Shown here: positions 4,894 through 30,041 of the stretch, in pieces | Layout of the letters: every line of letters begins with the position of its first letter | Position numbering within the stretch: the first letter of the stretch is position 1 | Assembly: GCA_012523095.1 (NCBI GenBank) | Contig: JAAYJE010000038.1 | Span: 40,244 to 104,243 of the forward strand | Reading direction: 5' to 3' | DNA length: 64,000 nt | Origin: Actinomycetota bacterium | GTDB taxonomy: Bacteria > Actinomycetota > Thermoleophilia > RBG-16-64-13 | Notes under the pieces: generated by a model | Told to the model about the DNA's origin: nothing | The model's database searches: none | The model's input: the letters and a program-made list of their open reading frames with translations, nothing else | Translations under genes and position numbers: made by a program

Positions 4894-4918
4894 GAAGGGT
4901 CTCCTTCGCTCCTCGCGC

Positions 4919-11662: not shown

Positions 11663-12859
11663 CTAAACCGCCTCCACCACCGTGGCGATGCCCTGGCCGC
11701 CGGCGATGCACAGCGTTGCCAGCCCGTAGCGCGTGCCCCGCTTCTGCATCTCATGGAGCAAGGTCGTGAACACCCTCGCCCCGGAGCAGCCTATAGGATG
11801 GCCGAGCGCGATGGCTCCTCCGTTGACGTTGAGGACGTCCATGCGGTCTCCGATGCCTAGCTCTTTGATGACCGCCAACGACTGCGCCGCGAACGCTTCG
11901 TTCAGTTCAATCAGACCCATATCGTCAAAGGTGAGGCCCGCGCGTTTCAGCGCCAAGCGCGAGGACGGCGCCGGCCCGAGACCCATGATCTCTGGAGGCA
12001 CGCCCGCGACGCCCATGCCTCGTATCGCCACCATGGGTTCGATACCGCGACGACCCGCCTCCTTGGCCGACATGACCACAGTGCAGCCGGCCCCGTCGTT
12101 GCGGCCCGAAGAATTGCCCGCGGTCACCTGCCCGTCCTTCTTGAAGACGGCCGGCAGTGCCGCCAGCCCCTCCAGAGTGCTCCTACGTGGATGCTCGTCG
12201 GTATCAAAGACGAGAGGATCCTTCTTCCGCTGCGGAACGTGTACCGCTACGATCTCGCCCTTGAAGCGACCTGACTCGATAGCGGCGAACGCCCGCTCCT
12301 GGCTCTGCAATGCGAAGGCATCCGATTCTTCGCGGGTGATGCCGTACTTCTCCCCCAGGTTCTCGGCCGTCAGCCCCATGGTCAGGTCGCCGTACACCTC
12401 GTAAGGTTGAGAGCGGGGCTGGCTTTCGGTGTTCGAGTCGAGCAGCACCGCGTTGCCGGCCCGGTACCCGTAGCGCGCGTCCCTGAGGTAGTAAGGAGCC
12501 CTGCTCATGCTCTCTACGCCACCCGCGACCACGATGTCGGCCTCGCCGATCATGATACTGGCCGCCGCGTTGTGGACAGATTGAAGACCCGAGCCACACT
12601 GCCGCATGACCGTGTAGGCGGGCACCTCCACAGGCAGCCCGGCCTTGAGCGCCGCCACACGCGCCAGATTGGCGGCGTCCGCACTCTGCTTGGCCTGGCC
12701 CATGATGACTTCGTCCACTTCGCCAGGTTCTACCTCGGCCCGTGCCAAGGCTTCCTGTATGACCAGCTTGGCGAGATCCTCGGGCTCCATGTCCTTGAGC
12801 CCTCCACCCAACCTGCCTACCGCCGTTCTCACGGCACTGACGATGACCACTTCGTCCAT
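11663..12859 (-). CDS. acetyl-CoA C-acyltransferase (thiolase)
   Basis: MDEVVIVSAVRTAVGR start, Cys region TVMRQCGSGLQS, and C-terminal GGQGIATVVE. ATG at 12859 with GGGAAGG RBS; the track start at 12895 is GTG. Confidence 0.85.
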   Translation of the reverse strand: MDEVVIVSAVRTAVGRLGGGLKDMEPEDLAKLVIQEALARAEVEPGEVDEVIMGQAKQSADAANLARVAALKAGLPVEVPAYTVMRQCGSGLQSVHNAAASIMIGEADIVVAGGVESMSRAPYYLRDARYGYRAGNAVLLDSNTESQPRSQPYEVYGDLTMGLTAENLGEKYGITREESDAFALQSQERAFAAIESGRFKGEIVAVHVPQRKKDPLVFDTDEHPRRSTLEGLAALPAVFKKDGQVTAGNSSGRNDGAGCTVVMSAKEAGRRGIEPMVAIRGMGVAGVPPEIMGLGPAPSSRLALKRAGLTFDDMGLIELNEAFAAQSLAVIKELGIGDRMDVLNVNGGAIALGHPIGCSGARVFTTLLHEMQKRGTRYGLATLCIAGGQGIATVVEAV

Positions 12860-13009
12860 GAGACCTTCCCTGTCTATCCGCCAAGAGTTCAACACGGCCG
12901 GCCGTAGAGGACTCCACCGCCGGCCGAGACCGCCCCGACCGTCAAAGGATCCCCGACGGCCGAGGCCATTCCAGCGGCCTGAGGATCGCTCCCCGACCGC
13001 TTCAGATCA

Positions 13010-13849
13010 TCAGTCGAACGGCTCCAGCACGATGCCGCCTAGATCGACGTCGGTATGCGTGAACACCTCGATGATCATCGACGCGTATCCGTCGCACTCG
13101 ATGTTCACACGGTAGTCCTTGTTCTTCTCCAAGCCGTCGAACTCGAAGTCCCCATAGTTGTCTGTGTGGGTCTCGAGCCTGATCCCCTCTCCCTCGAGAG
13201 TGACCCACACTCCTTCGGCGCACTCGTCAGGGACGTCACGCCGGATGACCTCACCGACCACGAAGCGTTTGGGGATGCCGACGTACTTGACCAGCGGAGA
13301 GGTATTGTACTCGGGATGAAGCGCCTCCGTATCGAGGGTCGCAACCAGCTTCGATATCTCGCTGTTCGGGTCGTCCAGGTCGCCGAAAACGAGAGCGCCG
13401 GTCGGACAGGCTTCTACGCACCGGGGTTGCTTCTCCCCCGCATCCAGCATGTGCGCACACAGGGTACATTTCTGGGGGATATCCAGTTCGGCGTTCCAGA
13501 AGACCACCCGGTAGGGACAAGCGTTCACTACCGCCTTCTGCCCCTTGGCCCTCACCGGGTCGATCATGACGACGCCGTCGTCGCGCCGGTATACGGCGTC
13601 GTCCAGGGCCACGGCGATACAAGGCGCCTCTTCGCAATGTAGGCACGGAATCGGCAGGTAGTCCACTTTAGGTTTGGGATAACTCCCGCGCTCGATCTCC
13701 TTGACCTGCATCCAGAACTGCCCCTCGAGAGGTTGGGGAGCCGAATAAGAGCCGTAGTCGTTGCCATAGTACTCGTCGCGGCACGCCAAGAAGCAGTTGT
13801 GGCAGCCACTGCACTTGGTCACGTCTATAAGCAAGCTAAGCCGCGCCAT
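13010..13849 (-). CDS. Molybdoenzyme small (beta) subunit of the pyrogallol-phloroglucinol transhydroxylase family, copy 1: three [4Fe-4S] motifs plus C-terminal beta-sandwich domain
   Basis: CSGCHNCFLAC, PCLHCEEAPC, CPYRVV and CTLCAH...CVEACPTGA Cys clusters. C-terminal ..NYGDFEFDGLEKNKDYRVNIECDGY...VDLGGIVL resembles the Pelobacter BthL C-domain. GGAGGG RBS inside the alpha gene end, 3-nt gap. Confidence 0.8.
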   Translation of the reverse strand: MARLSLLIDVTKCSGCHNCFLACRDEYYGNDYGSYSAPQPLEGQFWMQVKEIERGSYPKPKVDYLPIPCLHCEEAPCIAVALDDAVYRRDDGVVMIDPVRAKGQKAVVNACPYRVVFWNAELDIPQKCTLCAHMLDAGEKQPRCVEACPTGALVFGDLDDPNSEISKLVATLDTEALHPEYNTSPLVKYVGIPKRFVVGEVIRRDVPDECAEGVWVTLEGEGIRLETHTDNYGDFEFDGLEKNKDYRVNIECDGYASMIIEVFTHTDVDLGGIVLEPFD

Positions 13850-13852
13850 CTC

Positions 13853-16402
13853 TCAGCCCTCCCATTTCCCTATCTCGATGAGGCACGAGTTGGGCGTCAT
13901 CCCCGGCGCATTCTTGGACAGCATCCGAGACGGGGTCAGCATGCTGACACACCCGCCCCTGTCCGGGGAGTCAGGGTCGCCCGGCATCAACGGGTCGTAC
14001 AGGGCCGAAGAAGCGTAGCTGTGCACCGTCCCAGGACGGACCCGACCTGTGACGACGGCGATGCAGAGCACCGACGCTCTGTCGTTGTAGAGGCGGACGA
14101 TATCGCCACTGTTGATGCCCCTCTCAGCCGCGTCCTCCGGATTCAGCCGCGCCGGCCACCAAGGATAGCCGTCCTTCTTGATGCGATGCACCGGGATGTC
14201 GTTAAGCCAGTCGGTGTGCTTGTCGTAGTGGCAGTGGAACGAGAAACGTGGATGCGGAGACAAGAGCTGCAACGGGTATTTGTCATACAGTCCGGGCGTG
14301 CGATACCCCTCCCAGCTACGGAGATATCGGGGCACTACCGGCCGTTCCTCGTCATCGGGGAAGTACTGCTTCAGACTCTCCGAGGCGAACTCGATCTTGC
14401 CGCTGAAGGTTCCCAGCTCGTGGTTCGCCGCGGTCAGCCGCTTGGGATTGCCGACGTCGGGCGTATCGCAGGCCCGGCCCTCGTAGAACCAACGCAGCCC
14501 AGGCGTGGGTTCGTAGTCGTCCTTGATGTTGATGATGTGATAACCCTTACGGTTGAACTCTTCCCAGCTCACCTCTTTGGGCAGGTCGCAGGCGTCGAAG
14601 AAACCTTTGACCCAATCGACCTCGGTCTTGCCGCCATCGGTGTACTCATCGCGGAGACCCATCTTCTCGAAGATGAGAGCGAAGATCTCATAATCCGATT
14701 TGGAATCCCAAAGTGGTTCGATGCACTTCTGCTCACGGACCACCACCCGGTAGTTGCAACCGCTGCTGGCGTGCCAGGTGTAGCCGTTAACGGCGGCCCA
14801 CTCCCCGATGTCGTCACGTTCGAAGTTGGTGCAGGCGGGCAGGATGACGTCGGCCATGCGGGTCTCGCTGTTCCACCAGATGTCTTGGTTCACCACGAAC
14901 TCCAGCTTGGGGCTCTGATACATACGCGCCCACTTCGTGGTGTCGCTCATGGTGCCCATGAAGGAGCCGCCGTATCGGTACCACAGCTTGACCTCAGAGC
15001 ACCCCTCCGCCGGGTACTTGAAATGCATGAATTGCTGCTCGAGGCTCCTGCCGCAGAAGCCCTCGCCGTACCACTCCACCGGAGGGTCGAGGATAGCGTC
15101 GGGCACCGTCAAGCGCCAAAGCCGCTGGGGGTTCGAATTGACCGGGATGTAGTCCGCGACCTTGGGAGACATCGATATGCGACCGTTAGGCTCACCATAG
15201 GCGGGCACCCAGACCGTGGTGTCGTTCGGAGCCCCCATCGTCGTACCCCAGATGCTGCGGCCCGGTGCGCCCAACCCCTGCATCGCCTGCAGCAACACCA
15301 TCATGCGGGCCCACTCAGTGCCGTATGCCTCCCGGCAGGCGCCGCCCTCGCCGCCGCGAGACCCCCCGGAAAGGATGGTGCGCTTGGCCGCCCACTCTCG
15401 GGCCAGGGCGCGGATCACTCGAGCCTCCACGTCGCACTCTTCGGCGGCCCACTCGGGGGTTTTGGGCACTCCGTCGATATCCCCCAGTATGTACTCCTTG
15501 AACTCTTCGAAACCGATGGTACGGTCGGCGACATACTCTTTGTTGTAGGTGTCCTCGGTGATCCACACGAAGGCTATGGCCATAGCCATGGCTGCGTCGG
15601 TGCCCATGCGCGGAGTGATCCACTTGCCGCCCATAACAGCGTTCGTGTAGTTATAGAAGGGGTCGATGAAGACCATCTTGACACCCTTCTCCTTGAGCCA
15701 CTGGCGCCAGAGCGCAGAGTCTTGGCCCGAGTATGTTCCCCGGGTGCTGTCCGGATCGTTGGACCAGTAGACGATCATCTCGGCATTCTGTAACGCATCG
15801 CCCAACATGTCGTACGGTTCGGGCATCCCGAGACGCCAGTAGAACCCGTAGCTGTGCGTGGCTCCCCAGTGCCAGCCCTCCCAGCTGTCGGGGTTGTCGA
15901 GCACCGGGGTGCCTTCCATCATGTTGAGGAACCGCGCGAAGGGCCCCATCTTATAACCCACGATGCCCCAGTTGTGGTGCGACGAGGTCATGCCGCTGAT
16001 GGCTGAGCCGCCGTAAGCATCCTTCACTCTCGTCAGCTCGGAGCTCACCAGAGTAGCAGCCTCATCCCAAGAGATGTGCTCGTAGGGAGACCTGCCACGG
16101 TTCTGCGGATTTCGGCCCCCGGGCCCGGTGGAGCCTGGAGCACCATTCGCGTCGAAATCGACCCGCTTCATCGGGTACTTGATGCGCTCGTCGGAGTAGA
16201 TGCGGCGGCGTTCTGCGTGGGTATAAGGCGACAGCGTCACCTTCTTAGGGGGAGAGTACTCTTTGCCGCCGGCTTCGATGGTCCAAGGCTTGAAGTCCTT
16301 CTCATCGACCACCAGTGGACGAACCCGAACGATCTTCCCGTCTTTGACATAGACAGACACGGGCCCGCTGTTGGTACAGTTGGCGAACACCCTTTCGGCC
16401 AT
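13853..16402 (-). CDS. Molybdopterin-dependent large (alpha) subunit of the pyrogallol hydroxytransferase (transhydroxylase) family, copy 1
   Basis: 849 aa MopB-type protein without an N-terminal CxxCxxxC FeS motif and without a Tat signal. Blocks PDSWEGWHWG, MIVYWSNDP, GVPKTPEWAAEE, ILPACTNFERDDIGEW and SDYEIF are as in the Pelobacter acidigallici large subunit. Confidence 0.8.
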   Translation of the reverse strand: MAERVFANCTNSGPVSVYVKDGKIVRVRPLVVDEKDFKPWTIEAGGKEYSPPKKVTLSPYTHAERRRIYSDERIKYPMKRVDFDANGAPGSTGPGGRNPQNRGRSPYEHISWDEAATLVSSELTRVKDAYGGSAISGMTSSHHNWGIVGYKMGPFARFLNMMEGTPVLDNPDSWEGWHWGATHSYGFYWRLGMPEPYDMLGDALQNAEMIVYWSNDPDSTRGTYSGQDSALWRQWLKEKGVKMVFIDPFYNYTNAVMGGKWITPRMGTDAAMAMAIAFVWITEDTYNKEYVADRTIGFEEFKEYILGDIDGVPKTPEWAAEECDVEARVIRALAREWAAKRTILSGGSRGGEGGACREAYGTEWARMMVLLQAMQGLGAPGRSIWGTTMGAPNDTTVWVPAYGEPNGRISMSPKVADYIPVNSNPQRLWRLTVPDAILDPPVEWYGEGFCGRSLEQQFMHFKYPAEGCSEVKLWYRYGGSFMGTMSDTTKWARMYQSPKLEFVVNQDIWWNSETRMADVILPACTNFERDDIGEWAAVNGYTWHASSGCNYRVVVREQKCIEPLWDSKSDYEIFALIFEKMGLRDEYTDGGKTEVDWVKGFFDACDLPKEVSWEEFNRKGYHIINIKDDYEPTPGLRWFYEGRACDTPDVGNPKRLTAANHELGTFSGKIEFASESLKQYFPDDEERPVVPRYLRSWEGYRTPGLYDKYPLQLLSPHPRFSFHCHYDKHTDWLNDIPVHRIKKDGYPWWPARLNPEDAAERGINSGDIVRLYNDRASVLCIAVVTGRVRPGTVHSYASSALYDPLMPGDPDSPDRGGCVSMLTPSRMLSKNAPGMTPNSCLIEIGKWEG

Positions 16403-16453
16403 CAGTCATCAGCTCCCATGAGATTCCGTGGTGGGCGGCTTCAAGAGGTAAAA

Positions 16454-16492
16454 CGATATCTCGATATTATTGAGTAATACTGCTAGTATCGT
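16454..16492. promoter_or_regulatory. 39-bp conserved operator-like motif, copy A, in the divergent promoter region between the transhydroxylase-1 operon and IclR/transhydroxylase-2
   Basis: cgatatctcgatattattgagtaatactgctagtatcgt matches the reverse complement of 28095-28133 at 30/39 positions, including an identical 18-mer cgatattattgagtaata. Confidence 0.45.
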
Positions 16493-16501
16493 AGAGTAGG
16501 C

Positions 16502-17362
16502 ATGGTCCATTTGCAAGGCATGCGCTCGCCTGGAAGAGCGGCCCCGATCGACGGGAGAGATATGGCCGCGACGACAGCATCGCGAGATACCGATCCTTTC
16601 TCGGTCAGAGCGCTGGCCCGAGGCCTCTCCATTCTATGCCTTTTTGACGTGGACCACAGAGAGTGGACCATCGACGAGATGGTGGAGCGGACCGGGCTGG
16701 TTCGCATGACGGCCTACCGGATGGTGCGGACTCTGGAGTCCATGGCCTTCCTGGTGCGGGATTCCGCGACCAATCGCTACCGGCTCGGGCCGGCCATGTT
16801 GGCGCTCTGCTACGTCGCCGCCGATCAGTCGGAGTTCATCGCGGCGGCCCGACCTTTTCTCGAATCCCTCGTGGAGCAGACGGGAGAATCGGTCACTCTG
16901 GCCGTGGAGGTCGACGGGTTCCCCGTGTGTGTGGACATCATCAACACCACCCGTCCCTTCAAGCGCCAAACGGCCCCCGGCCGCATCCTCGGTGACATCG
17001 CGACGGTCCACGGAAAGATCTTCACCGCCTTCAAGTCGCCGGAGGAAAGAGAAGCGCTTCTCGCTCGGCCCCGCGCCAGGCGGACACCTCAGACCGTGAC
17101 CGACCGGGAGGTCATCCTGGCGGAGCTCGACCGGGTAGTCAAGGACGGCGTAGCCTACGATCTCGAAGGGTACTACCAGGGTCTGTGCGCGGTGGGCGCT
17201 CCGGTACGCGACCAGTTCGGAGCGGTCACGGCCTCAATCTCCGTGGTGGCTCCTGCGGGCCGCTTCGGTCCCGCCGAGAGCGCCGCTTTCGCGGAGGCCG
17301 TCACGGAGGCGGCCGGCGCCTTCTCCGCCTATCTGGGGTGGACCCCCCGAGCATCTACTTAG
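16502..17362 (+). CDS. IclR family transcriptional regulator
   Basis: N-terminal wHTH (..SVRALARGLSILCLFD...WTIDEMVERTGLVRMTAYRMVRTLESMAFL..) and C-terminal IclR effector domain. The start codon is uncertain; later Met at 16520 or 16562 are possible. Confidence 0.75.
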   Translation: MVHLQGMRSPGRAAPIDGRDMAATTASRDTDPFSVRALARGLSILCLFDVDHREWTIDEMVERTGLVRMTAYRMVRTLESMAFLVRDSATNRYRLGPAMLALCYVAADQSEFIAAARPFLESLVEQTGESVTLAVEVDGFPVCVDIINTTRPFKRQTAPGRILGDIATVHGKIFTAFKSPEEREALLARPRARRTPQTVTDREVILAELDRVVKDGVAYDLEGYYQGLCAVGAPVRDQFGAVTASISVVAPAGRFGPAESAAFAEAVTEAAGAFSAYLGWTPRAST

Positions 17363-17488
17363 GTAGTTTGGACCCCCGTTCTGCCGGGCAACTATTGACT
17401 GATCGCTCCCAGCAAGGTACAAAGGATTGGCCAATAATCTCAAACCCGAGGCGTCCATTCACCCCTCTTCGAAAGGACGACGATTGCT

Positions 17489-20140
17489 ATGGCCAAAGGG
17501 GAACGCGCAAAGGTCGACGTGAGTGTCGACAAAACAACGATCAAGAACCTCGCGATGGGGGGCCTTTTGGGAGGAGGCGGCGAGTGCTTCGTGGATGTCA
17601 AAGATGGGAAAGCGATCCGTATCAGACCCTTCAAATACGACTGGAAGTGCGACTACGACTCGCTCAGACCGTGGAAGATCGAGCGTAACGGCGAGACGCT
17701 GCAGCCGCTGCCCAAGGCCTTGCCGGCCCCGTTCTCTCTCGCGTACAAGAAGAGGACCTTTTCCCCCAACCGTATCAAGTTCCCTTTGAAGCGGGTGGAC
17801 TGGGACCCGAATGGAGCACCCGGGTCCACCGGGCCCGGCGGCCGCAACACCCAGAACCGTGGCAAGAGCAAGTTCGTGAGGATCTCGTGGGACGAAGCCA
17901 TTGACCTTGTCGCCTCGGAGGTCAAGCGCGTCCATAAGGAATACGGCCCGCTCGCCATCCTGGCGCAGGGTGACGGCCACGGAGAGTGCAAGACCATCCA
18001 CACACCGCACGGCCATCAGGCCCGCCTGCTCGATATGATGGGGGGCTTCACGCAGCAGGTGCGCAACCCCGACAGCTGGGAGGGCTGGTACTGGGGCGCG
18101 AAGCACGTGTGGGGGCAGGGCTTCCAAGGCATGATGTCACCGGCGGCCAACCTCACCAAGGACATCTCCGAACACTCCACCATGGTCCTCAAATGGGGCT
18201 GCGACGAAGAGACCACGCCCTGGGGTTTCACCGGCCAGTATGCTACCCGCATCTCGCAGTTCTGGACGCGGGCCGGCATCAAGCAGGTGTATATCTGCCC
18301 CGACCTCAACTACGCCGCCGCCGTCCACGCCGACAAATGGATCCCGGTGCTCCCTAACACAGACGCCGCGCTCCAGCTGGCCATCATCTACGTGTGGCTG
18401 ACCGAGGACACCTGGGACAGAGAGTACGTCGAGACGCACGCGGTAGGCATGGACAAGGTGGCCGCCTACGTGCTGGGCGAGGACCAGGAGGGTATCCCCA
18501 AGACGCCTGAATGGGCCTCGAAGAGGTGCGGCGTGCCGGAGTGGACCATCAAAGCCCTGGCCCGCCAGTTCGCCAAGAACACCACATCCATCATCCACTA
18601 TTTCGGCGGCTCGGCTTTCCGGGGTCCATACTCACATGAGCCCGGCCGTCTGGAGTGCATCCTTCTCGGCATGCAGGGGCTCGGCAGACCAGGCGTTCAC
18701 CAGTGCCAGATGACGTACTTCGGTATGCCCCGCGCGGAGGGGTTGGGCAGCATCCGTTTCTTCAACCCTGAGTTGCCCGAGCGGCTCACGAAGCCCTGCT
18801 GGACCACGGTGCATTCGTGGGGTCCACAGCTCATCCCCAAGACACTCATCCAGGACGCCATCCTCAAACCACCCCTGGTATTCCACGGCGCCGGCGGCCA
18901 GGAGAGCCCGACCGAGGAGCAGTTCGACCGCTACACTTATCCCATCGCGAAGGAAAAGGGCGGCGTCCCCATCCACATGATCTGGACCGACACGCCCTGC
19001 CGCATCACCTGCTGGAACCACGGCAACTGGACCATCGAAGCTTTCAAGGATCCCAGCATAGAGTGTGTGGTCGCACAGCACCCGTGGATGGAGAACGAAT
19101 GCCTCTACGCCGACATCGTGTTACCGGCCAACACCACCCTCGAGGTGGAGGACATCGTCACCACCACCCGGCAGGGACCTCACTTCGCAAGCGTCTCCAT
19201 CCAGGAGCAGTCCATTCTGCCGATCGGCGAGTCGAAGAGCGACTACGAGATCGTGGCCGCCATCGCTGAAGAGCTGGGCTACGGCGAAGAGTTCACTGGG
19301 GACATGAGCACGTACGATCTCCAGAAGCTCGTGTTCGACAGCATGCACCTGGACAAGCTCACCACGTGGGAGGACTTCTACGAGAAGAAGACCTACGTGT
19401 ACAAGACGGCTCCCGACTGGGAGGACGACCCGCCCGGCTTGCGCAAGTTCTACGAGGATCCCAAGAACAACCCGCTCCCGACTCCGAGCGGCCTTCTGGA
19501 GTTCTATTCCGCTCGACTGGCCGAGCACTTCCCTGACGATAAGGAGCGGCCGCCGTTACCGAAGTGGATCGAGAAGGGCGTCACTCACGACGAAGCCCTG
19601 TCGAGCGAACGGGCGGCCATGTTCCCGCTGCTTCTGATCTCCAACCATCCGCGCTGGCGCACACACGCCCAGGGTGACGACAACAGCTGGGCCCGGGAGA
19701 CCCCTACCGGCAAGGTGCTGGGCTTCGACGGCTACAAGTACGAGCCTATCTGGATCAACCCTGTTGATGCTGATGAGCGTGGCATCAACGACGGCGACGT
19801 GGTCAAGATCTTCAACGAGCGTGGCGTCGTACTCGTCGGCGCCCGCGTCTGGGAGCGGATCAAACCCGGCGTGGTTTATGTAGACCACGGCGCCCGGCAT
19901 GACCCGCTGGTGCCGGGCAAGGTATGCCGCGGAGGCGCCATCAACACTATCGCCCCCAATGGGATCACCTCCAAGAACGCCGTCGGCCAGGCCACAAGTG
20001 GTTACCTGGTCGACGTGCAGAAGGTGAAGAACGAGGAATGGGAGGAGTGGCGTAGGGACCATCCCGAAGCCTTCGCACGGGTCTACGACCCGGGTGCCGG
20101 TTTACGCTTCGACGCATGGATCGAAGGAGGCGACAAATGA
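17489..20140 (+). CDS. Molybdopterin-dependent large (alpha) subunit of the transhydroxylase family, copy 2
   Basis: 883 aa with no Cys4 N-motif and no Tat signal. It shares NGAPGSTGPGGRN.QNRG, PDSWEGWYWG, GIPKTPEWA, VLPANTTLEVEDI and SDYEIVAAIAEELG blocks with copy 1. Confidence 0.8.
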   Translation: MAKGERAKVDVSVDKTTIKNLAMGGLLGGGGECFVDVKDGKAIRIRPFKYDWKCDYDSLRPWKIERNGETLQPLPKALPAPFSLAYKKRTFSPNRIKFPLKRVDWDPNGAPGSTGPGGRNTQNRGKSKFVRISWDEAIDLVASEVKRVHKEYGPLAILAQGDGHGECKTIHTPHGHQARLLDMMGGFTQQVRNPDSWEGWYWGAKHVWGQGFQGMMSPAANLTKDISEHSTMVLKWGCDEETTPWGFTGQYATRISQFWTRAGIKQVYICPDLNYAAAVHADKWIPVLPNTDAALQLAIIYVWLTEDTWDREYVETHAVGMDKVAAYVLGEDQEGIPKTPEWASKRCGVPEWTIKALARQFAKNTTSIIHYFGGSAFRGPYSHEPGRLECILLGMQGLGRPGVHQCQMTYFGMPRAEGLGSIRFFNPELPERLTKPCWTTVHSWGPQLIPKTLIQDAILKPPLVFHGAGGQESPTEEQFDRYTYPIAKEKGGVPIHMIWTDTPCRITCWNHGNWTIEAFKDPSIECVVAQHPWMENECLYADIVLPANTTLEVEDIVTTTRQGPHFASVSIQEQSILPIGESKSDYEIVAAIAEELGYGEEFTGDMSTYDLQKLVFDSMHLDKLTTWEDFYEKKTYVYKTAPDWEDDPPGLRKFYEDPKNNPLPTPSGLLEFYSARLAEHFPDDKERPPLPKWIEKGVTHDEALSSERAAMFPLLLISNHPRWRTHAQGDDNSWARETPTGKVLGFDGYKYEPIWINPVDADERGINDGDVVKIFNERGVVLVGARVWERIKPGVVYVDHGARHDPLVPGKVCRGGAINTIAPNGITSKNAVGQATSGYLVDVQKVKNEEWEEWRRDHPEAFARVYDPGAGLRFDAWIEGGDK

Positions 20141-20955
20141 AGGTCTTCGTCATCGATGTCGGCCTTTGTGTAGGCTGCTACGCCTGCCAGTTCGTCTGCA
20201 AGGACGAGCACGTGGGCAACGACTGGTCGCCGATCGCCAAGCCCCAGCCCGACACCGGCCAGTTCTGGATGCGGCTGGACGAACACATCCGCGGCACGGT
20301 CCCCAAGGTGGAGATGCATTACGTGCCGAACCCCTGCATGCACTGTGACGAGGCCCCCTGCATCCCGCCCTGCCCCATCGAGGGAGCCATCTATAAGCGC
20401 GACGACGGGCTGGTGATCATCGACTCGATGAAGTGTACGGGGTGTAGGTTATGTGTCGACGCCTGCCCCTACGACGCCATCTACTTCAACGACGACTTGA
20501 ATCTGGCCCAGAAGTGTACAGGCTGCGCCCATCTCCTCGACGGCGGTGAATGGATGGTCCCGCGCTGCGTCGACGCCTGTCCCACTGAGGCCATCAAGTT
20601 CGGTGAAGAGAGCGAGTTCGCTGCCGAGATAGCGAAGGCCGAAGTGCTGAAGCCCGAGCTGGGCCACAAACCGCGCGTCTATTACCTCAACATCCCGAAG
20701 AAGTTCATCGCGGGCACCGTATACGATCCGGTTGCTAAGGAGATCATCGAGGGCGCCACCTGCACGCTCACGAACGGCAACGACAAGGCCCTCACCGCCA
20801 CGACCGACGGCTTCGGCGACTTCTGGTTCCGGGGGCTCCCCGACGACGCCTCTTACAAGCTGAGCGTCTCGGCCCCGGGCTTCAGAACCAAGACGATGGA
20901 GGACATCCGCACCGAGAAAGACGTCAATCTAGGCGACATAGCGCTTGCCAAGTAA
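20137..20955 (+). CDS. Transhydroxylase-family small (beta) FeS subunit, copy 2
   Basis: ATG at 20137 overlaps the alpha stop (ATGA) with GGAGG 6 nt upstream; the track ORF starts earlier at 20116. Motifs MKVFVIDVGLCVGCYACQFVC, PCMHCDEAPC, CTGCRLCVDACPY, CTGCAH...CVDACPTEA, plus C-terminal GFGDFWFRGL...VNLGDIAL domain. Confidence 0.8.
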   Translation: MKVFVIDVGLCVGCYACQFVCKDEHVGNDWSPIAKPQPDTGQFWMRLDEHIRGTVPKVEMHYVPNPCMHCDEAPCIPPCPIEGAIYKRDDGLVIIDSMKCTGCRLCVDACPYDAIYFNDDLNLAQKCTGCAHLLDGGEWMVPRCVDACPTEAIKFGEESEFAAEIAKAEVLKPELGHKPRVYYLNIPKKFIAGTVYDPVAKEIIEGATCTLTNGNDKALTATTDGFGDFWFRGLPDDASYKLSVSAPGFRTKTMEDIRTEKDVNLGDIALAK

Positions 20956-20992
20956 TGACCTGATCAGTCTCTCGCGCGGACGTCGAAACAAA

Positions 20993-21028
20993 GGCCCCCT
21001 GCCGCAGGTCACGGCAGGGGGCCTTTTT
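20993..21028. terminator. Rho-independent terminator hairpin (12-bp GC stem, 7-nt loop, T5 tail), probably bidirectional between convergent genes
   Basis: ggccccctgccg caggtca cggcagggggcc ttttt immediately after the 20955 stop. The minus-strand gene ends at 21086. Confidence 0.6.
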
Positions 21029-21085
21029 CTTCCCACGGTGGTCTCGCACGGGTTCCCCGTGAAAGGTCCGCTACAGCGAGATAGG

Positions 21086-22216
21086 TTACCTCGATCTTGC
21101 CGGGTCGGCGTCTATCAGGCCCTCGAGTCCGTGAGAGAGCTCCTGCAGCTTTCTGGCCTGCTCCTCCACCTCCCTGGTGGCTGCCACCGACTGCTTCTCC
21201 GCCTCGTTGATGCTGGACATGGCCTTGCCGATCTGCTCCACACCCGCCAGCTGTTGACCGCTCGCGGTGGAGATGTCCGTCGTCGCTTCGGCGGTCCTGG
21301 TCGCCGCCTCCATCCTCTCACTGATGTTCTCCAGAGCCTTGTTGGCTTCGAGCCTGCCCATCTCCACGGTCTCCCGACCCTGTTCCGCAGCCTGGACAAC
21401 CACGTCGCTGGCCTTCTGGATCTCGCCGAGGACCGCCCGCACCTGCGCGACCGCCTGTTTGGATTGCTCGGCCAGGCTCTTGACCTCTTGGGCGACCACG
21501 GTGAAGCCTTTGCCGGCCTCTCCGGCCTTGGCCGCTTCGATCGATGCGTTCACGGAGAGCAGATTGGATTGCTCGGCGATATCGTTGACCGTGGCGATTA
21601 CCTCTCCCACCGACTCGTTCTGCTCCTTCAGCCGATCTATGGCCTCCGCCACCACGCCCATATCGCGGTGTATCTGTTCGAAATGATCGAAGTTCCTTCT
21701 TGCCGACTCAGCACCGAATCTCGACTTCTCCACCACACTCTGTGAAACCTCCGAGGCCTCAGAAGCCTTCTCTCGGGTCAGCGCCGCCGTCTGCCTGACT
21801 TCTTCCACCGTGACCGTGGTCTCGTTCGTGGCTGTCGCCGTCTGCGCAGCCGCGGCCGCGACCTGCGACGAAACGGCCAGCAGTCCGGCCGCGGCCTCAG
21901 CGATACTGGTGACGGCGGCCCGAAGTCGGCGGCGGATCCCACGGCTGAGGGCCACGGTCCCCACGCCGCTCAGCGCCACCGCCACAGCCGCAAGAACAAC
22001 TATGGCGATCAAGAACACGGTGGCCGTGCCGTCCAGCGTGTCCAACATGCCTTGGAGTGTCTGATCCCCCGAGACTCCTGCCTGTCCGGCCGACTTGACG
22101 AAGTCCCCATGCCAAGACCTGACCCAGACCATGGCGCCGATGCCGACACCTGCCACCGCCAGCGTCAATACCAAGGGGCCGACCATCGCAGTCGTGATAC
22201 GCCGTCCGATCGTCAT
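21086..22216 (-). CDS. methyl-accepting chemotaxis protein (two TM helices, short periplasmic loop, MCP signalling domain)
   Basis: Conserved MCP signalling-domain core (..[32 protein letters not shown]..) and two hydrophobic segments near the N-terminus. ATG at 22216 with GGAGGA RBS; the track start at 22297 is rejected. Confidence 0.8.
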
Positions 22217-22417
22217 CTCACGTCCTCCCTCTCTTGCCCTCGACCCGCACCTTTGCTGGTCGTCAAGAGGCATGCCTCCTGCGTCTATTTCGTCCACGCA
22301 GGCCGATTTCCCCCAAGGACTTGCCTGCGCCCCAGGGTCCGGCCATCGAAACAGGTGCTGAAGACGACGAGGCGTCCGGAAGGAGTGATGCCTCTCCCCG
22401 TCCGTGTCGACGGACGT

Positions 22418-23233
22418 CTACCCCCAGCTTGAGCCGTATTGCCCGATCGCCGCCGCAAACGCGTCGATGAAGTGGACGCCTCCGTCGACGAGTATGGTGG
22501 ATCCGGTCATGAAGTTGGAGTCCTCACCGGCCAGGAATACGAACAACCCGGCGATATCAGTCGGAGTCGCGATGCGGTGCAGAGGCACGTGGCCGGCCAT
22601 GGTCGCGAAGACACCGTCCATGTCGGTGTTGAGGACCTCGGCCATCGGTTCGAAGTTGCTTTCAAGCATAGCCGTGCGCACCGGCCCCGGGCAGACCACG
22701 TTGCATCGCACGTTGTTCTTGCCGTAGTCGAGAGCCACCTGCTTGGTCAGATGGATCAGGCCGGCCTTGGTGGTGCAGTAGGCGGGTCCTCCGGGTACGG
22801 CCACCACTCCGGCCAGCGACGCCACGTTGATGATCGAGCCGCCTCCAGCCTTGGCCATCTCAGGGATGGCGGCCTTCATCATCAGGAAGGGGCCCGTCAG
22901 GTTCACCTCAAGCATCTGGCGCCAAGCCGCCGGGTCCATGTCGACAACCCCGGCGTTCATCTCGATAGCAGCGTTGTTGACCAAGATGTCGAGCCGCCCC
23001 GTGAAGCCGAGCGCCGCCTCGACCATCTTGCCGGCGTTGCCGTCCTCCGTCACGTCTCCGCAGAAGACCGTGACGCTGTCCGTGGGCAGTAACGCGGCCA
23101 CCTCGTCCAGCTTCTCTCTACGCCGACCCGTGATGACGATCTTGGCGCCTTCCTCCACGAAACGCTTCGCGACCCCCGCGCCGATGCCGGTGCCGCCGCC
23201 GGTGATGAGTGCGACCTTGTTTTCTAGTTGCAT
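22418..23233 (-). CDS. SDR family oxidoreductase
   Basis: NKVALITGGGTGIGAGVA, NNAA, YCTTKAG. ATG at 23233 with AAGGGGA RBS, 10 nt after the upstream MBL gene stop. Confidence 0.75.
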   Translation of the reverse strand: MQLENKVALITGGGTGIGAGVAKRFVEEGAKIVITGRRREKLDEVAALLPTDSVTVFCGDVTEDGNAGKMVEAALGFTGRLDILVNNAAIEMNAGVVDMDPAAWRQMLEVNLTGPFLMMKAAIPEMAKAGGGSIINVASLAGVVAVPGGPAYCTTKAGLIHLTKQVALDYGKNNVRCNVVCPGPVRTAMLESNFEPMAEVLNTDMDGVFATMAGHVPLHRIATPTDIAGLFVFLAGEDSNFMTGSTILVDGGVHFIDAFAAAIGQYGSSWG

Positions 23234-23243
23234 TGCCGTCCCC

Positions 23244-24170
23244 TTACTCTCTGGGCGGGTCACCGTCGAACCCGCCGTTTGGATTCAAGAATATCTTCCC
23301 AGGTTCGCCGGGAAGAGGGGTGAGCCAATCGGGGCTGCTGTGGGGAAAGAGCAACCTCGCCTGCCAGTGGATGGCAAAATCCTCCGCTTTCACGTCCCCA
23401 TAGTACCTCGCCATGCCCTCGACCAGGTCCGCCCCGGTCTTGGCGATGTTATACATCTCCTCGTAGACATCCAGGTAGCGCACCGACCAGTCGACGCAGT
23501 CGGTATAGGTGCGAGAGGTGTCCTCCTGCACATCCTCCAAGATGCGTAACTTGGCTTCGTCGCAGTGACCTGGGATGACGATGCGGGGGTCGAATTCCAG
23601 GAGCTTCTTGATAGAGGCCCTCCACTTGACCCGTCGCTCCACGTTGCTTTCGATGGGCCATAGGTGACAGTCGTGGAAGGCCACATCAGTCGCACACAGG
23701 ACCCGGATCGACGGCGCCCAGACCACGGAGTTGTTGACGCTGTCTCCCTCCCAGCCGTCCGACACCAGCAGTTCTTCGCCCTCCAGTTCGAGACGAGGCT
23801 CGTGCATGGGCATAGGGATGATGGTCTTCGGTGGAATATCCGGCCCAAAACGATCTATTGCCCACATATCCACCTTGTCGCTCGAGGTGAACACCACATC
23901 TCTCACCACGCTCGGCAGCGCCACGATCTTGGCGTGCGGGAACGCATGCGCAAGGACGCTCAGCCCGAAATGGTGGTCGGGATGGAAGTGAGAGACATAT
24001 ATATGGGTGAGGTTCTTCCTCATCGGGATGATCTCCGCGATCATCCTGTGGGTGTCGCTCAGCAATTGGGACGCGTCGACAAGGACGGCGTCGCGCTCCC
24101 CATAGAACAACGTGGAGTTGCTGTTGAAACCCAGGTAGCTGTGAAGAAACACGCGGTATTTCAGCGTCAC
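23244..24170 (-). CDS. MBL-fold metallo-hydrolase
   Basis: HxHxDH motif YVSHFHPDHHFG with downstream His/Asp ligands. GTG start with GGAAGGGG RBS. Confidence 0.7.
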   Translation of the reverse strand: MTLKYRVFLHSYLGFNSNSTLFYGERDAVLVDASQLLSDTHRMIAEIIPMRKNLTHIYVSHFHPDHHFGLSVLAHAFPHAKIVALPSVVRDVVFTSSDKVDMWAIDRFGPDIPPKTIIPMPMHEPRLELEGEELLVSDGWEGDSVNNSVVWAPSIRVLCATDVAFHDCHLWPIESNVERRVKWRASIKKLLEFDPRIVIPGHCDEAKLRILEDVQEDTSRTYTDCVDWSVRYLDVYEEMYNIAKTGADLVEGMARYYGDVKAEDFAIHWQARLLFPHSSPDWLTPLPGEPGKIFLNPNGGFDGDPPRE

Positions 24171-24321: not shown

Positions 24322-25155
24322 CTACGTCGGGTCCAAGTCCCGTCGCGAGTAACCCAGAAAAGCCGAGAGGTCGGTGGCCGTGGATTTGATCGCCTCGGCG
24401 TACTCGCGCTTCTCGTCGGGCCCAAACCGTCCTGCGGGTACGATGAGGGAGATGGCGGCGATCACTTTGCCGAGTTGGTCGCGCACCGGGGCTGCGACGG
24501 CACAGGTGCCTACATTGCGCTCCTCGATGTCAAACGCCACTTCCTCGCGCGCCACCCGTCCCAACTCCTTGGCCAGGACCTTCGGGTCGGTGATGGTGTG
24601 GGGAGTGAGTCGAGGATGATCGCCGGCCAAGATCTCAGCCTTTTCGGCTTCGGTCTTGAAGGCCGCGAAGATCTTACCGTTTGCGCTGGCCGTATCGCCG
24701 ATGATGCGGCCCACGGCGACCTCCCGTCTGAGCGGCCGCGGCGTATCCACCATATCGACGCTCACCGCCACCCCGTCCAACTCGATGGCCAGCGTAGCCG
24801 CTTCGCCCGTTTGCTCGGTCAGGTCCACTAGGTAAGGCCGCACGATCGCCGCGAGCTCCGAGTAGCCGCCCGACAAGTACATGGTGGCCAGCAACGCAGG
24901 ACCCAGGTGATACCGGTTGGTCACGGGATCCCGTACCAAATAGCGCGAAGACTCCATGGTCCGGATCATCCGGTAGGCCGTCATCCTTGGAAGGCCGGCG
25001 CCCTCAGCGATCTCGTCCAACGTCCATTCTCGGTTCTCAGCGTCGAACAGGCCAAGGATAGTAAGACCCTTCGCCAGGGCCCTCACCAAGAAGGCCCCGT
25101 CCGCACCTTCCGCGGACCCCGCCCGCTGTTCAGGTTTTGCAGTCGATTTGGCCAC
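24322..25155 (-). CDS. IclR family transcriptional regulator (second copy)
   Basis: ..FLVRALAKGLTILGLFDAENREWTLDEIAEGAGLPRMTAYRMIRTMESSRYL.. and IclR C-domain. Paralog of 16502-17362. GTG start. Confidence 0.75.
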   Translation of the reverse strand: MAKSTAKPEQRAGSAEGADGAFLVRALAKGLTILGLFDAENREWTLDEIAEGAGLPRMTAYRMIRTMESSRYLVRDPVTNRYHLGPALLATMYLSGGYSELAAIVRPYLVDLTEQTGEAATLAIELDGVAVSVDMVDTPRPLRREVAVGRIIGDTASANGKIFAAFKTEAEKAEILAGDHPRLTPHTITDPKVLAKELGRVAREEVAFDIEERNVGTCAVAAPVRDQLGKVIAAISLIVPAGRFGPDEKREYAEAIKSTATDLSAFLGYSRRDLDPT

Positions 25156-25201: not shown

Positions 25202-25990
25202 TCACACAAAGGCCATAGTCCCGCCGTCAGGATACAAGATGGTCCCGGTCACGAAGTCCGACGCGGCCGAGGCCAAGAAGACGGTCGGGCCGATGAGGTC
25301 GGGCACTGTGCCCATGCGGCCCATGGGCACATTCACAAGCATCTTCTCATAGCGGTCGGCTTCTCTGCGAACACGCTCCTCGGTCATGGGTGTGACGGTG
25401 ATTATCGGGGCGATGGCGTTCACCATGACCTTCTTCGAAGCCAATTCAACCGCCAACTGCTTCGTGAGCATGTCAACCGCGCCCTTGCTGGCGCAGTAAG
25501 CGAGATTGCCGCCCAGTGCGGCGCGCGCCCCACGTATCGAAGACAGATTGATGATCTTACCACCCCCGTGCTCAACCATGTGCTTCGCGAAGTGCTTGCA
25601 GCAGAGCATCACACCGCGGACGTTCACGCTGAAAAGATTGTCCCAATCTTCGAGAGGGAACTCCGTGGCCGGCGCCTTCACATTGAAACCCTGCGCGTTG
25701 ACGCCCACATGAATGCGGCCCATGTCTTCGACGGCGGCCGCGATTATCTCTTCGACGTTCTTCTCCTGGTCTTGGCCCGTCACCACCGGGTAGGTGAACA
25801 CCCTCTGCCCCGTGGTCGCGTGGATCTCTTCCACCGCGCTGTCGATGGCGTCCAGGTTGATGTCGGCGATACCCACCCGAGCGCCGAACACGACTAAACC
25901 CTGCGCCAACCCGCGCCCGATCCCGCCGGCGCCGCCCACCACCACGACATTCTTGCCTTTCAGGGAGAACAGGTCAGGCGATATTTCCAT
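25202..25990 (-). CDS. SDR family oxidoreductase; candidate phloroglucinol reductase-type enzyme
   Basis: GKNVVVVGGAGGIGRG, NAQG, YCASKGAV. First gene upstream of the IclR regulator and last of the HBD-like / BKACE / SDR operon. Confidence 0.7.
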   Translation of the reverse strand: MEISPDLFSLKGKNVVVVGGAGGIGRGLAQGLVVFGARVGIADINLDAIDSAVEEIHATTGQRVFTYPVVTGQDQEKNVEEIIAAAVEDMGRIHVGVNAQGFNVKAPATEFPLEDWDNLFSVNVRGVMLCCKHFAKHMVEHGGGKIINLSSIRGARAALGGNLAYCASKGAVDMLTKQLAVELASKKVMVNAIAPIITVTPMTEERVRREADRYEKMLVNVPMGRMGTVPDLIGPTVFLASAASDFVTGTILYPDGGTMAFV

Positions 25991-26067: not shown

Positions 26068-26922
26068 CTACCGCTTCACAATGCCCAGCATCTGCCGGAC
26101 CTCGTCAGGGGTGGTGGGCTCTATGTTGAGCTCTCGAGCGATGCGGACCGACCGCTCCACCAACTGAGCGTTACTCTTCGCCAGCACGCCCCGCGAGTAG
26201 TAGATGTTGTCCTCGAGCCCCACTCGGATGGCGCCGCCCCTGATCATCGCCATGGTGGTGATAGGGAGTTGCGCGGCCGACGTCGCACAGCAGTTGAAGT
26301 AGCAGCCTTCGGGCAGGAATTCGATCATCGAATTGAGACTCTCGGGCGTCGCCTCCACCGCACCTTGGTACATCATGCCGAGTACGATGTTGACGTAGTA
26401 CGGCGGTTTGATGAGTTCCTTCTTGATGAGGTTGCTCACGTCCCGATACATGCTCTGCGAGTAGCACTCCATCTCGGGCTTGATGTCGAGTTCCCGCATC
26501 TTGGTCGCCCAAGCCTCGATGTCCTTGGTGAGGTTCGAGAATGGAGTGCCGGCGAATTCGCCCGTCTGCCGCATGAGCGTCCCCATGTTGAGCGAGGCCG
26601 ATTCAGGTTTGGCGTCAAGGCAGCGCACCCGCTCCTCGATGGTGAGGTTGGCTCCCCCGCCGGTAGAGAACTGGATGATGATGTCGCCGCATCTGCCCCG
26701 GACCGCCGCCAGTATCTCTTCGAACTTCTCTTTGGTGCCGGTAGGCTTGCCCTTCTCATCGCGGGCGTGGATGTGCACTATGGAGGCCCCGGCGTTGTAG
26801 CATTCAAGCGCAGCCTGGGCAATCTCCGCCGGCTGTTCGGGGACGTTAGGGTTCATATCTTTGGTGACCATCGCCCCGTTCAGCGAAGCGGTGACGATGA
26901 CCTTGCCGGCGGGCAGTTTCAT
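26068..26922 (-). CDS. BKACE family (beta-keto acid cleavage enzyme, DUF849 TIM barrel) protein; candidate triacetate acetoacetate-lyase type
   Basis: KVIVTASLNGAMVTKDMNPNVPEQPAEIAQAALECYNAGASIVHIHARD and later GGGANLTIEER, RVGLEDNIYY blocks are typical of 3-keto-5-aminohexanoate-cleavage-enzyme-like proteins. AGGAG RBS. Confidence 0.75.
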   Translation of the reverse strand: MKLPAGKVIVTASLNGAMVTKDMNPNVPEQPAEIAQAALECYNAGASIVHIHARDEKGKPTGTKEKFEEILAAVRGRCGDIIIQFSTGGGANLTIEERVRCLDAKPESASLNMGTLMRQTGEFAGTPFSNLTKDIEAWATKMRELDIKPEMECYSQSMYRDVSNLIKKELIKPPYYVNIVLGMMYQGAVEATPESLNSMIEFLPEGCYFNCCATSAAQLPITTMAMIRGGAIRVGLEDNIYYSRGVLAKSNAQLVERSVRIARELNIEPTTPDEVRQMLGIVKR

Positions 26923-28133: not shown

Positions 28134-28269
28134 AACTGTCTTTGTTTAGGCCTTTGCCGGTGTCGGCGATCTCAAGCTGGAGAAACGACGTCCGCACCGG
28201 CGACAATGAAAGGGGTGCCCTGATGGCAGCATCGAAGGCTTCTTGGCACAGCGAAGGGAGAACCGCATC

Positions 28270-29037: not shown

Positions 29038-29055
29038 ACAGGGAGCGAAGAGAGC

Positions 29056-30012: not shown

Positions 30013-30041
30013 GGCGCCCGGGTTAGGTTGAGGAGACACTG

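Follow-up and report, generated by a model that had tools for sequence, protein, structure and literature searches.

We analyzed a 64-kb stretch of DNA from an Actinomycetota bacterium (contig JAAYJE010000038.1, positions 40,244 to 104,243), here called the window. The list of open reading frames and their translations reveal two pairs of large and small subunit genes of the transhydroxylase family, typified by AthL/BthL of Pelobacter acidigallici. The pairs diverge around a gene for an IclR-type regulator, and we call them L1S1 and L2S2 (copies 1 and 2 of a first-pass annotation; Table 1). Our reading, to which we give a probability of roughly 60%, is that this region forms the front end, for aromatics, of a trihydroxybenzene/phloroglucinol fermentation island. 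It would contain two mechanistically different enzymes of the transhydroxylase family, with L2S2 catalyzing net redox chemistry. Judged by its residues, L1S1 looks like a transhydroxylase-type enzyme. The first-pass annotation had instead proposed two transhydroxylases with different substrate pairs. That is not the best reading, since copy 2 is without the second-site tyrosines, falls in a separate superclade, and has a four-cluster small subunit. For these reasons, a better fit is a transhydroxylase-type enzyme accompanied by a relative with a different mechanism.

The key differences between the two enzymes lie in the active site. Residue positions follow AthL numbering, which matches the PDB sequence. 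We take Ser175 to be the molybdenum (Mo) ligand, and Asp174, His144 and Tyr404 to be catalytic or cosubstrate-site residues, in line with their reported roles (Messerschmidt et al. 2004). Across an alignment of 194 sequences, His144, Asp174, Ser175, Trp176 and Arg359 are common to the L1, AthL and L2 groups. Throughout the superclade that contains L1 and AthL, four more residues are conserved: Tyr404 (in an xPGYAE/D loop), Tyr560, Tyr152 and Trp147. Here, Tyr404 is found in 93, and Tyr560 in 91, of the 96 other members (77 and 75 of 79 in the L1 clade alone). L1 itself keeps H144, W147, Y152, D174, S175, W176, R359, Y404 and Y560. Its two changes, R153K and W354E, are fixed in its tight clade (31/31).

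L2 keeps H144, D174, S175, W176 and R359, and the Ser, in an NPDSWEGW motif, accompanies Asp174 and His144 in all 29 L2-core sequences. However, Tyr404 and Tyr560 occur in none of the 29. The Tyr404 loop is replaced by unrelated, variable sequence and a segment of about 10 residues with Tyr560 is deleted. Tyr152 and Trp147 are also replaced or deleted across the clade. Asp174, immediately before the Ser ligand, marks the L2 core (29/29) but only 5/45 outgroup sequences. The first-pass annotation had named conservation of the Mo-ligand Ser and of the substrate pocket as the test of a transhydroxylase. For copy 1, both are conserved. For copy 2, Ser175, Asp174 and His144 are in place, but Tyr152, Trp147, the Tyr560 segment and the loop with Tyr404 have been replaced or deleted.

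The same division is apparent in the phylogeny of the large subunits. The tree is neighbor-joining only, with 100 bootstraps, and uses 194 family members and 789 columns. The sequences were the window proteins, AthL rebuilt from PDB alignments, representatives at 50% identity, and large subunits from 80 GTDB genome loci. These loci (numbered L010 and so on; individual sequences have P numbers) are the best 80 matches to L1 from one pattern scan of genome contigs, with [DR]NPDSWEG plus [YFH]P[ML][KI]RVD[FW][DN]. Note that the pattern [DR]NPDSWEG excludes AthL itself (HNPDSWEG), and that the tree was built without RehL and DbhL, discussed below. The superclade of L1 and AthL has 100% bootstrap support, the L1 clade 91%, and the L2 superclade 95%. 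Over trimmed columns, identity is 51% between L1 and AthL, 37% between L2 and AthL, and 38% between L1 and L2. The AthL-proper group includes one Holophaga foetida copy at 86% identity, while a second Holophaga copy and Desulfosporosinus are at about 65%. L1, as placed by this tree, is a sister subfamily of AthL-proper and no strict orthologue. The view that the copies are ancient paralogues agrees with their 38% mutual identity and separate, well-supported clades. In this neighbor-joining tree, a grouping with the transhydroxylases is seen for copy 1 (100%) but not for copy 2, which is outside the AthL superclade. Recent, lineage-specific duplication was considered and rejected, given the 38% identity of L1 and L2 and the same pairing in four phyla. 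Tandem paralogy is also seen within the transhydroxylase clade itself. Thus, H. foetida DSM 6591 (L078, 5105-8590 and 9923-13404) has, side by side, two AthL-proper pairs with 86% and 66% identity to Pelobacter AthL. Each has Tyr404 and Tyr560, and a three-cluster small subunit.

The small subunits differ in their iron-sulfur (FeS) clusters. Three [4Fe-4S] motifs had been proposed for each. This is right for S1, which has 12 Cys in a pattern identical to that of BthL, with the FS3 ligands lost. S2 departs from it, with 16 ligand Cys. All four Cys groups are there, including CTGCRLCVDACP and the fourth Cys of group II. Hence, four [4Fe-4S] clusters are predicted for S2 and three for S1. All 51 small-subunit partners of L1/AthL-type genes have 12 Cys and have lost FS3, like BthL. 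Sixteen Cys are found in S2 and in 7 of the 14 paired L2-type partners from other loci; among these 7 is every one of the five paired partners with a large subunit that shares at least 62% identity with L2. A further, large clade, from aerobic or facultative Proteobacteria, surfaced in tblastn searches of plasmids. Its large subunits have about 990 aa, with an N-terminal extension of about 120 aa, and its small subunits have ligands for two clusters only. Examples are L094 8683-12445 (a Paraburkholderia plasmid), L095 8584-12398 (a Salipiger plasmid), and L026 6810-9821. These genes adjoin genes for VOC (extradiol-dioxygenase-type) and fumarylacetoacetate-hydrolase proteins, and some records call them 'pyrogallol hydroxytransferase'.

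L1 and L2 types appear, from gene order, to be functionally linked. An L2-type gene is at most 10 kb from an L1/AthL-type gene in 16 of 79 loci and, where each flank extends for at least 5 kb, in 10 of 34 loci. Four phyla are represented among the linked loci, namely Actinomycetota, Desulfobacterota, Chloroflexota and Firmicutes. The genes run in one direction, as L2-S2-L1-S1, in Lachnospiraceae, Oscillospiraceae, Clostridiales and Dehalococcoidia. A full phloroglucinol cluster surrounds this array in L050 and L079. The cluster has MFS transporters, a thiolase, a short-chain dehydrogenase/reductase (SDR), a cyclase of the dihydrophloroglucinol cyclohydrolase (DPGC) family, a 3-hydroxyacyl-CoA dehydrogenase (3HCDH), a BKACE-family enzyme and acetate kinase. 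The thiolase gene directly follows S1 in both loci, as in the window, and the order L1-S1-thiolase recurs in L011, L050 and L079. In L010 and L092, L2-S2 and a preceding FeS-NrfD-Mo module make up a five-gene array, with an SDR gene and two cyclase genes next to it. The closest named relatives of L2 include Chloroflexi RBG bins (P0147 and P0193).

For all their differences, and as first proposed, both pairs belong to the AthL/BthL family rather than to the respiratory dimethyl sulfoxide (DMSO) reductase types. The evidence is in the match to the transhydroxylase structure 4v4c, the AhtL-like first domain and the beta-sandwich. Among solved structures, the large subunit of the P. acidigallici transhydroxylase (4v4c_A) is the best match to L1 (868 bits, E 4e-260) and also to L2 (403 bits, E 2e-119). 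The next-best PDB matches are trimethylamine N-oxide (TMAO) and DMSO reductases, at about 235-257 bits (for L2, at most 235 bits). Both large subunits have the Pfam domains AhtL-like_1st (PF21423; E 5e-23 for L1 and 6e-9 for L2), Molybdopterin (PF00384) and Molydop_binding (PF01568). The N-terminal Cys4 FeS motif was said to be missing from both; indeed, there is no Molybdop_Fe4S4 domain (PF04879) and a single Cys in the N-terminal region. Alignments to the 4v4c large subunit begin at residue 7 for L1 and 29 for L2. An export signal was also said to be missing from the large subunits. Direct reading of the N-termini agrees, with no twin-arginine (Tat) or Sec signal on any of the four subunits. 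S1 matches BthL (4v4c_B) with 211 bits, over residues 4-273, and S2 matches end to end with 190 bits. The expected C-terminal beta-sandwich is present on both, which align with BthL up to residue 272/274. It is detected as Pfam CarboxypepD_reg in S2 (E 2.5e-15), and in S1 with E 8e-6 only, under the gathering score. S2 also matches Pfam Fer4_11. The peptides quoted to illustrate divergence, NPQNRGRSPYEH and NTQNRGKSKFVR, are found in the translations, but the VDLGxI ending does not apply to S2, which ends VNLGDI. In the L2 superclade, P0248, P0249, P0254 and P0255 have a twin-arginine signal (SRRDFLVGAG...), after which comes a long linker rich in Thr and Val. There are therefore also exported members of this 'cytoplasmic' family.

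Features of the locus are listed in Table 1. The five open reading frames first described were confirmed, with the frame of S2 running from 20116 to 20955. The start of S2 is most likely ATG 20137, overlapping the L2 stop as ATGA, since gene callers use this ATG and homologues have 271-272 aa. Hence, a length of 279 aa is right for S1, but S2 has 272 aa. The extra 'MDRRRRQ' of the longer frame is probably left untranslated. A Tat signal on S2 was considered and rejected; the 'MDRRRRQ' precedes the accepted start, and no hydrophobic stretch follows. The thiolase gene reported after copy 1 is present (TIGR01930, 466 bits). So is the strong terminator after copy 2, a hairpin and T-run with a folding energy of -32.9 kcal/mol and z -5.97. 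Note that the terminator comes from direct reading and folding; a simple terminator scan gave no entry there.

Table 1. Features of the L1S1/L2S2 locus and neighboring genes in the window.
Feature	Coordinates	Strand	Evidence
Acetyl-CoA C-acetyltransferase (thiolase), downstream of S1	11663..12895	-	NCBIfam TIGR01930, 466 bits
S1, small FeS subunit, 279 aa, three [4Fe-4S] predicted plus C-terminal beta-sandwich	13010..13849	-	4v4c_B, Cys pattern
L1, transhydroxylase-type large subunit (Mo-bisMGD), 849 aa	13853..16402	-	4v4c_A, Pfam, clade, residues
AT-rich divergent L1/IclR intergenic region, probable promoters/operator	16403..16501	.	sequence reading
IclR-family regulator, PcaR/PcaU/PobR-like	16502..17362	+	Pfam HTH_IclR and IclR_C
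L2, large Mo subunit of distinct AthL-family subclade, 883 aa	17489..20140	+	4v4c_A, clade, residues
S2, small FeS subunit, 272 aa, four [4Fe-4S] predicted plus C-terminal beta-sandwich	20137..20955	+	4v4c_B, 16 Cys, Pfam
Intrinsic terminator hairpin between convergent S2 and chemotaxis genes	20990..21031	.	12-bp GC stem, 7-nt loop, T-run
Methyl-accepting chemotaxis protein within island	21086..22297	-	Pfam MCPsignal
SDR oxidoreductase, 271 aa as called	22418..23263	-	Pfam adh_short; NCBIfam generic SDR matches only
Metallo-beta-lactamase-fold hydrolase, 308 aa	23244..24170	-	Pfam Lactamase_B; Vmh-family metallo-beta-lactamase 129 bits, below cutoff
Second IclR-family regulator	24322..25155	-	Pfam HTH_IclR and IclR_C
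SDR, best phloroglucinol reductase candidate	25202..25990	-	44% to SDR beside two DPGC-family cyclase genes in L010
BKACE-family enzyme, candidate triacetate acetoacetate-lyase	26068..26922	-	Pfam BKACE
3HCDH-family enzyme, candidate 3-hydroxy-5-oxohexanoate dehydrogenase	26931..27890	-	Pfam 3HCDH_N/3HCDH, NCBIfam matches
Third Mo enzyme module, B-C-A order	28243..32282	+	Pfam, NCBIfam
FeS subunit, DsrO/PsrB-like	28243-29037	+	Pfam
NrfD-type membrane subunit	29056-30012	+	Pfam
Catalytic subunit, 746 aa, Fe4S4 domain, no Tat signal	30042-32282	+	best PDB match acetylene hydratase 2e7z, 285 bits

The divergent arrangement around the IclR gene recurs elsewhere. L011, from an uncultured Actinomycetes metagenome-assembled genome (MAG), is syntenic, at 83-86% identity, with the same back-to-back layout. 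IclR homologues, 65-71% identical, occupy the same position in L011 and L016. The match of the window regulator to TIGR02431 (127 bits) is below cutoff. The L1/IclR intergenic region has a short palindrome, ATACT-GCT-AGTAT. An IclR operator shared by the regions upstream of L1 and L2 was not found; these have weak (about 75%) matches and unrelated short palindromes. P0215, a protein of 1016 aa that is 70% identical to L2, has an extra IclR_C domain (PF01614). This suggests either a gene-call fusion or a real IclR-L2 fusion and, in both cases, conserved adjacency of IclR and L2 genes. The closest relative of L2, 91% identical, is from a Thermoleophilia MAG. Proteins identical to L1 and L2 are encoded on the JGI metagenome contig Ga0239563_000076 and in anaerobic-digester metagenomes (PRJNA283612). 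The chemotaxis gene lies between the Mo enzyme and phloroglucinol genes and has a 59% homologue in the syntenic L011. Its product may mediate chemotaxis towards phenolics.

Beyond the chemotaxis gene, the neighborhood is predicted to encode a phloroglucinol route. The gene set (SDRs, BKACE, 3HCDH, thiolases and an ADP-forming acetyl-CoA synthetase) matches the enzymology published for Clostridium scatologenes, whose cluster has the same 3HCDH family; the part played by BKACE enzymes in the pathway is described there as well (PMC10470551). Two NCBIfam models match the BKACE protein below cutoff, Kce with 292 bits and 3,5-dioxohexanoate:acetyl-CoA transferase with 209 bits. For the candidate phloroglucinol reductase, the known reductase structure 5g4k scores 114 bits and is not the top match. 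No DPGC-family homologue was found by tblastn anywhere in the window. Cyclase genes are present in many related loci (L010, L020, L034, L045, L050, L053, L079 and others). The metallo-beta-lactamase-fold hydrolase gene is located between SDR genes, is not conserved in other loci, and gave no PDB sequence relative. Its product may be a non-homologous substitute for the cyclohydrolase or, alternatively, the cyclase may be elsewhere in the genome. No UbiD-type gallate decarboxylase was found among the window open reading frames scanned. Downstream, 32969-39146 (-) encodes an MFS transporter, a two-subunit 2-oxoacid (indolepyruvate-type):ferredoxin oxidoreductase, and the ADP-forming acetyl-CoA synthetase, beside a GntR regulator (39262-40026, +). 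Gene content marks 32969-40026 as the probable ATP-yielding end of acetate fermentation, and the window as a whole looks like a fermentative route to acetate. The oxidoreductase could supply or consume ferredoxin that L2S2 might use.

A second, beta-oxidation-like set is at 575-7297 (-). It comprises 3HCDH (575-1516), an SDR (1573-2415) 41% identical to the phloroglucinol-reductase-like SDR of L010, a creatinase/M24-fold hydrolase (2417-3664), thiolase (3715-4893), and a FadB-like bifunctional enzyme (4919-7297). By a parallel route, the set may serve a different substrate, either a cyclic dione or a phenolic. Two other features are unrelated in appearance: a CotH kinase/VTC-domain/DUF4956/Cthe_2159 cluster (44062-49156, +) and a tyrosine integrase with an Arm DNA-binding domain (59671-60684, +).

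The third molybdoenzyme module lies 7 kb from S2. In L010 and L092, L2-S2 homologues come immediately after the same B-C-A module, which L016 has in part. The best PDB match of its catalytic subunit in the window, acetylene hydratase, is the closest characterized relative of the catechol dehydroxylases (PMC7028382). The module could be a cytoplasm-facing, quinone-linked phenol dehydroxylase or hydroxylase.

We propose the following mechanism. The host would be an uncultured anaerobic actinobacterium, Thermoleophilia-like, from anaerobic digesters. L1S1 would be cytoplasmic, with Mo bound by the Ser of the D-S-W motif, His144 and Asp174 serving the Mo-bound phenol, and Tyr404 and Tyr560 forming the second (cosubstrate) site. 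S1, as a degenerate three-cluster beta subunit, need not carry net electrons. Most likely, L1S1 would convert pyrogallol, or a close analogue, to phloroglucinol by redox-neutral hydroxyl transfer. Phloroglucinol would then be reduced, ring-opened and cleaved to acetyl-CoA and acetate by the neighboring SDR, hydrolase, 3HCDH, BKACE, thiolase and ADP-forming acetyl-CoA synthetase. L2S2 would represent a separate, old and widespread subfamily that has kept the Mo-Ser/Asp/His phenol-binding core. Because the cosubstrate-site tyrosines are lost, and a complete four-cluster electron wire is kept, its most likely reaction would be net two-electron hydroxylation, with water as the oxygen donor, or dehydroxylation of a polyhydroxybenzene. 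L2S2 would feed the same pathway and trade electrons with a partner outside the complex, for example ferredoxin or a membrane module. In the version we favor, L2S2 would be a hydroxylase that makes the tetra- or trihydroxybenzene used by L1S1. What the sequences show is family membership, the placement in clades, the patterns of residues and Cys, and the linkage of genes; we infer the substrates, the direction of electron flow and the redox partner.

A more specific form of this proposal, which we consider improbable, makes L2S2 a 'priming' water-dependent Mo hydroxylase. This would produce 1,2,3,5-tetrahydroxybenzene de novo from pyrogallol or phloroglucinol. Its four-cluster wire would carry the electrons away, possibly to the acetylene-hydratase-like, NrfD-anchored enzyme in the role of dehydroxylase. 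In Lachnospiraceae, Oscillospiraceae and Dehalococcoidia, the conserved L2-S2-L1-S1 operon would then encode two enzymes that work together as an isomerase system. The operon structure is consistent with L2S2 supplying the tetrahydroxybenzene cosubstrate of the transhydroxylase. The origin of that cosubstrate has reportedly been an open question since the 1990s (Reichenbecher & Schink 1999), and Eubacterium oxidoreducens is said to have separable DMSO-dependent and tetrol-dependent activities.

Several observations weigh against our reading. Half of the paired L2-type small subunits (7/14) deviate from the 16-Cys pattern: the count is 15 in three from Dehalococcoidia, three from Firmicutes (L084, L050 and L064) have 12 Cys and have lost the cluster, and that of L085 is further degenerate. 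Some Chloroflexi have L2-type genes that are solitary among housekeeping genes. No gene for a redox partner adjoins S2. The step from four clusters to net redox chemistry is one that we infer, and the aerobic proteobacterial clade has Tyr404 and Tyr560, yet only two clusters. The only characterized net hydroxylases of the family, RehLS and DbhLS, are outside our L1/L2 comparison with respect to both clade and Tyr404. For L1, 51% identity to AthL, its place in a sister clade, and the R153K and W354E changes also count; its substrate pair may differ from that of AthL.

Some of these points favor the explanation of the first-pass annotation, in which both pairs are redox-neutral transhydroxylase isoenzymes for different phenolic pairs, for example pyrogallol and hydroxyhydroquinone-type substrates, as in Pelobacter massiliensis. 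The two enzymes share 4v4c as best match, an unusual architecture and the Ser/Asp/His core, and they are co-located with phloroglucinol genes in many genomes. Furthermore, the Firmicute partners with 12 Cys have lost the same cluster as BthL, with L085 further degenerate, and two such operons per Chloroflexi genome have been labelled transhydroxylases (Hug et al. 2013, PMC3971608). We nevertheless think this explanation unlikely. Tyr404, Tyr560, Tyr152 and Trp147 are missing from the L2 clade without exception, and L2 is in a separate superclade with 95% bootstrap support. The four-cluster wire of S2 and its nearest relatives is lost in 51/51 partners from the transhydroxylase superclade.

Other explanations accept that L2S2 is not a transhydroxylase. 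Together with the NrfD-anchored Mo enzyme (28243-32282), it might form an electron-coupled hydroxylase/dehydroxylase pair. One enzyme would add OH from water, freeing two electrons, and the other would remove OH and take two electrons. The outcome would be net isomerization to phloroglucinol, or a supply of tetrahydroxybenzene, without pre-existing cosubstrate. The five-gene, co-directional arrays in L010 and L092, next to SDR and two cyclase genes, fit such coupling. So do the FeS and NrfD homologues (79% and 58%) near an L1/L2 pair in L016, the position of the module 7 kb from S2, and the kinship of its catalytic subunit with acetylene hydratase and, through it, catechol dehydroxylases. However, the association is seen in 4 loci only, all from related lineages, and the L2-S2-L1-S1 operons of Firmicutes and Dehalococcoidia are without the module among the open reading frames examined. 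We hold the idea to be speculative and very unlikely. We give least credence to L2S2 being a cytoplasmic S- or N-oxide reductase, or other oxyanion reductase, that merely resembles AthL and is near L1S1 incidentally. Its best NCBIfam models, all sub-threshold, are BisC, DmsA and TorA, and the Chloroflexi genes among housekeeping genes have no phenolic pathway nearby. Conversely, L2 matches AthL with 403 bits and any DMSO/TMAO reductase with at most 235 bits. It also has the AhtL-like first domain, Asp174 (29/29 L2-core sequences, compared to 5/45 in the outgroup), and a BthL-type small subunit with a beta-sandwich. Repeated linkage to L1-type and phloroglucinol genes, often in one operon and across four phyla, also counts against it. 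Our preferred reading remains a transhydroxylase-type L1S1 beside a net redox L2S2.

Among the major pools of plant carbon in anoxic soils, sediments, digesters and guts are gallate, tannins and pyrogallol. Entry to the phloroglucinol pathway is by the transhydroxylase step, and metagenome studies at present name every AthL-like gene 'pyrogallol hydroxytransferase'. Should the second type prove to be a net hydroxylase or dehydroxylase, the predicted pathways of polyphenol turnover would change. The types could then be told apart by simple sequence markers (the loop with Tyr404, the segment with Tyr560, and 12 or 16 Cys in the small subunit), and there would be a concrete candidate for the source of the tetrahydroxybenzene cosubstrate. 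Alternatively, if both types are ordinary transhydroxylases, this is a routine paralogue pair.

The closest known system is AthL/BthL of P. acidigallici (PgtL/PgtS, EC 1.97.1.2, PDB 4v4c). Both window pairs share its AhtL-like first domain in place of the FS0 Cys motif, cytoplasmic large subunit, D-S-W motif, His144, Arg359 and small-subunit beta-sandwich. L1S1 additionally shares Tyr404, Tyr560, Tyr152, Trp147 and the three-cluster Cys pattern, and the pathway context matches. It differs in 51% identity, a sister clade, R153K and W354E. L2S2 is further away, with 37% identity, another superclade, the Tyr404 loop and Tyr560 segment missing, and four clusters in S2.

RehLS (RhLS) of Aromatoleum anaerobium and DbhLS of Thauera aromatica AR-1 are in the same RhL/PgtL family (PMC10100899). 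These resorcinol and 3,5-dihydroxybenzoate hydroxylases catalyze water-dependent, net oxidative phenol hydroxylation (PMC10084136), a precedent for the kind of chemistry proposed for L2S2. Their genomic partners encode hydroxyhydroquinone dehydrogenase (btdLS) and a pyruvate dehydrogenase (PDH)-like complex (bqdLMS; PMC10084136), whereas the window has a reductive phloroglucinol context. No PDH-like E1/E2/E3 genes were found among the window open reading frames scanned. The host of the window looks fermentative and not nitrate-respiring. A homologue search seeded with a Paraburkholderia protein returned no named resorcinol hydroxylase.

The catechol dehydroxylases of Eggerthella and Gordonibacter (Dadh, Hcdh and Cldh), like acetylene hydratase, use Mo with bis-molybdopterin guanine dinucleotide (bisMGD), and act on phenolic rings in anaerobic Actinobacteria. 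L1 and L2 differ, since they have no Fe4S4 domain (PF04879) and match acetylene hydratase with only 41 and 56 bits, respectively. The catechol dehydroxylases cluster away from pyrogallol hydroxytransferase (PMC7028382). In the window, it is the third Mo enzyme (30042-32282), not L1 or L2, that combines an Fe4S4 domain with acetylene hydratase as nearest characterized relative. The E. lenta enzymes have FeS and membrane-anchor partners, as does the third enzyme, but they also have a Tat signal, which it is without.

The family, the pathway, and the occurrence of two transhydroxylase operons in one genome were known already. Hug et al. (2013) annotated two pyrogallol-phloroglucinol transhydroxylase complexes in the sediment Chloroflexi RBG-2 and RBG-1351 (PMC3971608). 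This is the same phenomenon, with two AthL-family operons per genome of an anaerobic fermenter. However, both were treated as transhydroxylases, without types defined by active site or FeS content, and without cross-phylum operon pairing. Metagenome studies label such genes uniformly as pgthAB. In the literature searched, we found no prior split into two types by active-site and FeS signatures, no cross-phylum operonic pairing, and no proposal that the second type is a non-transhydroxylase. The L2S2 group is a widespread, uncharacterized sister group. Together, the comparisons indicate that AthL-like genes are of at least two deeply separated types, with different predicted active sites and FeS content, that are frequently encoded together.

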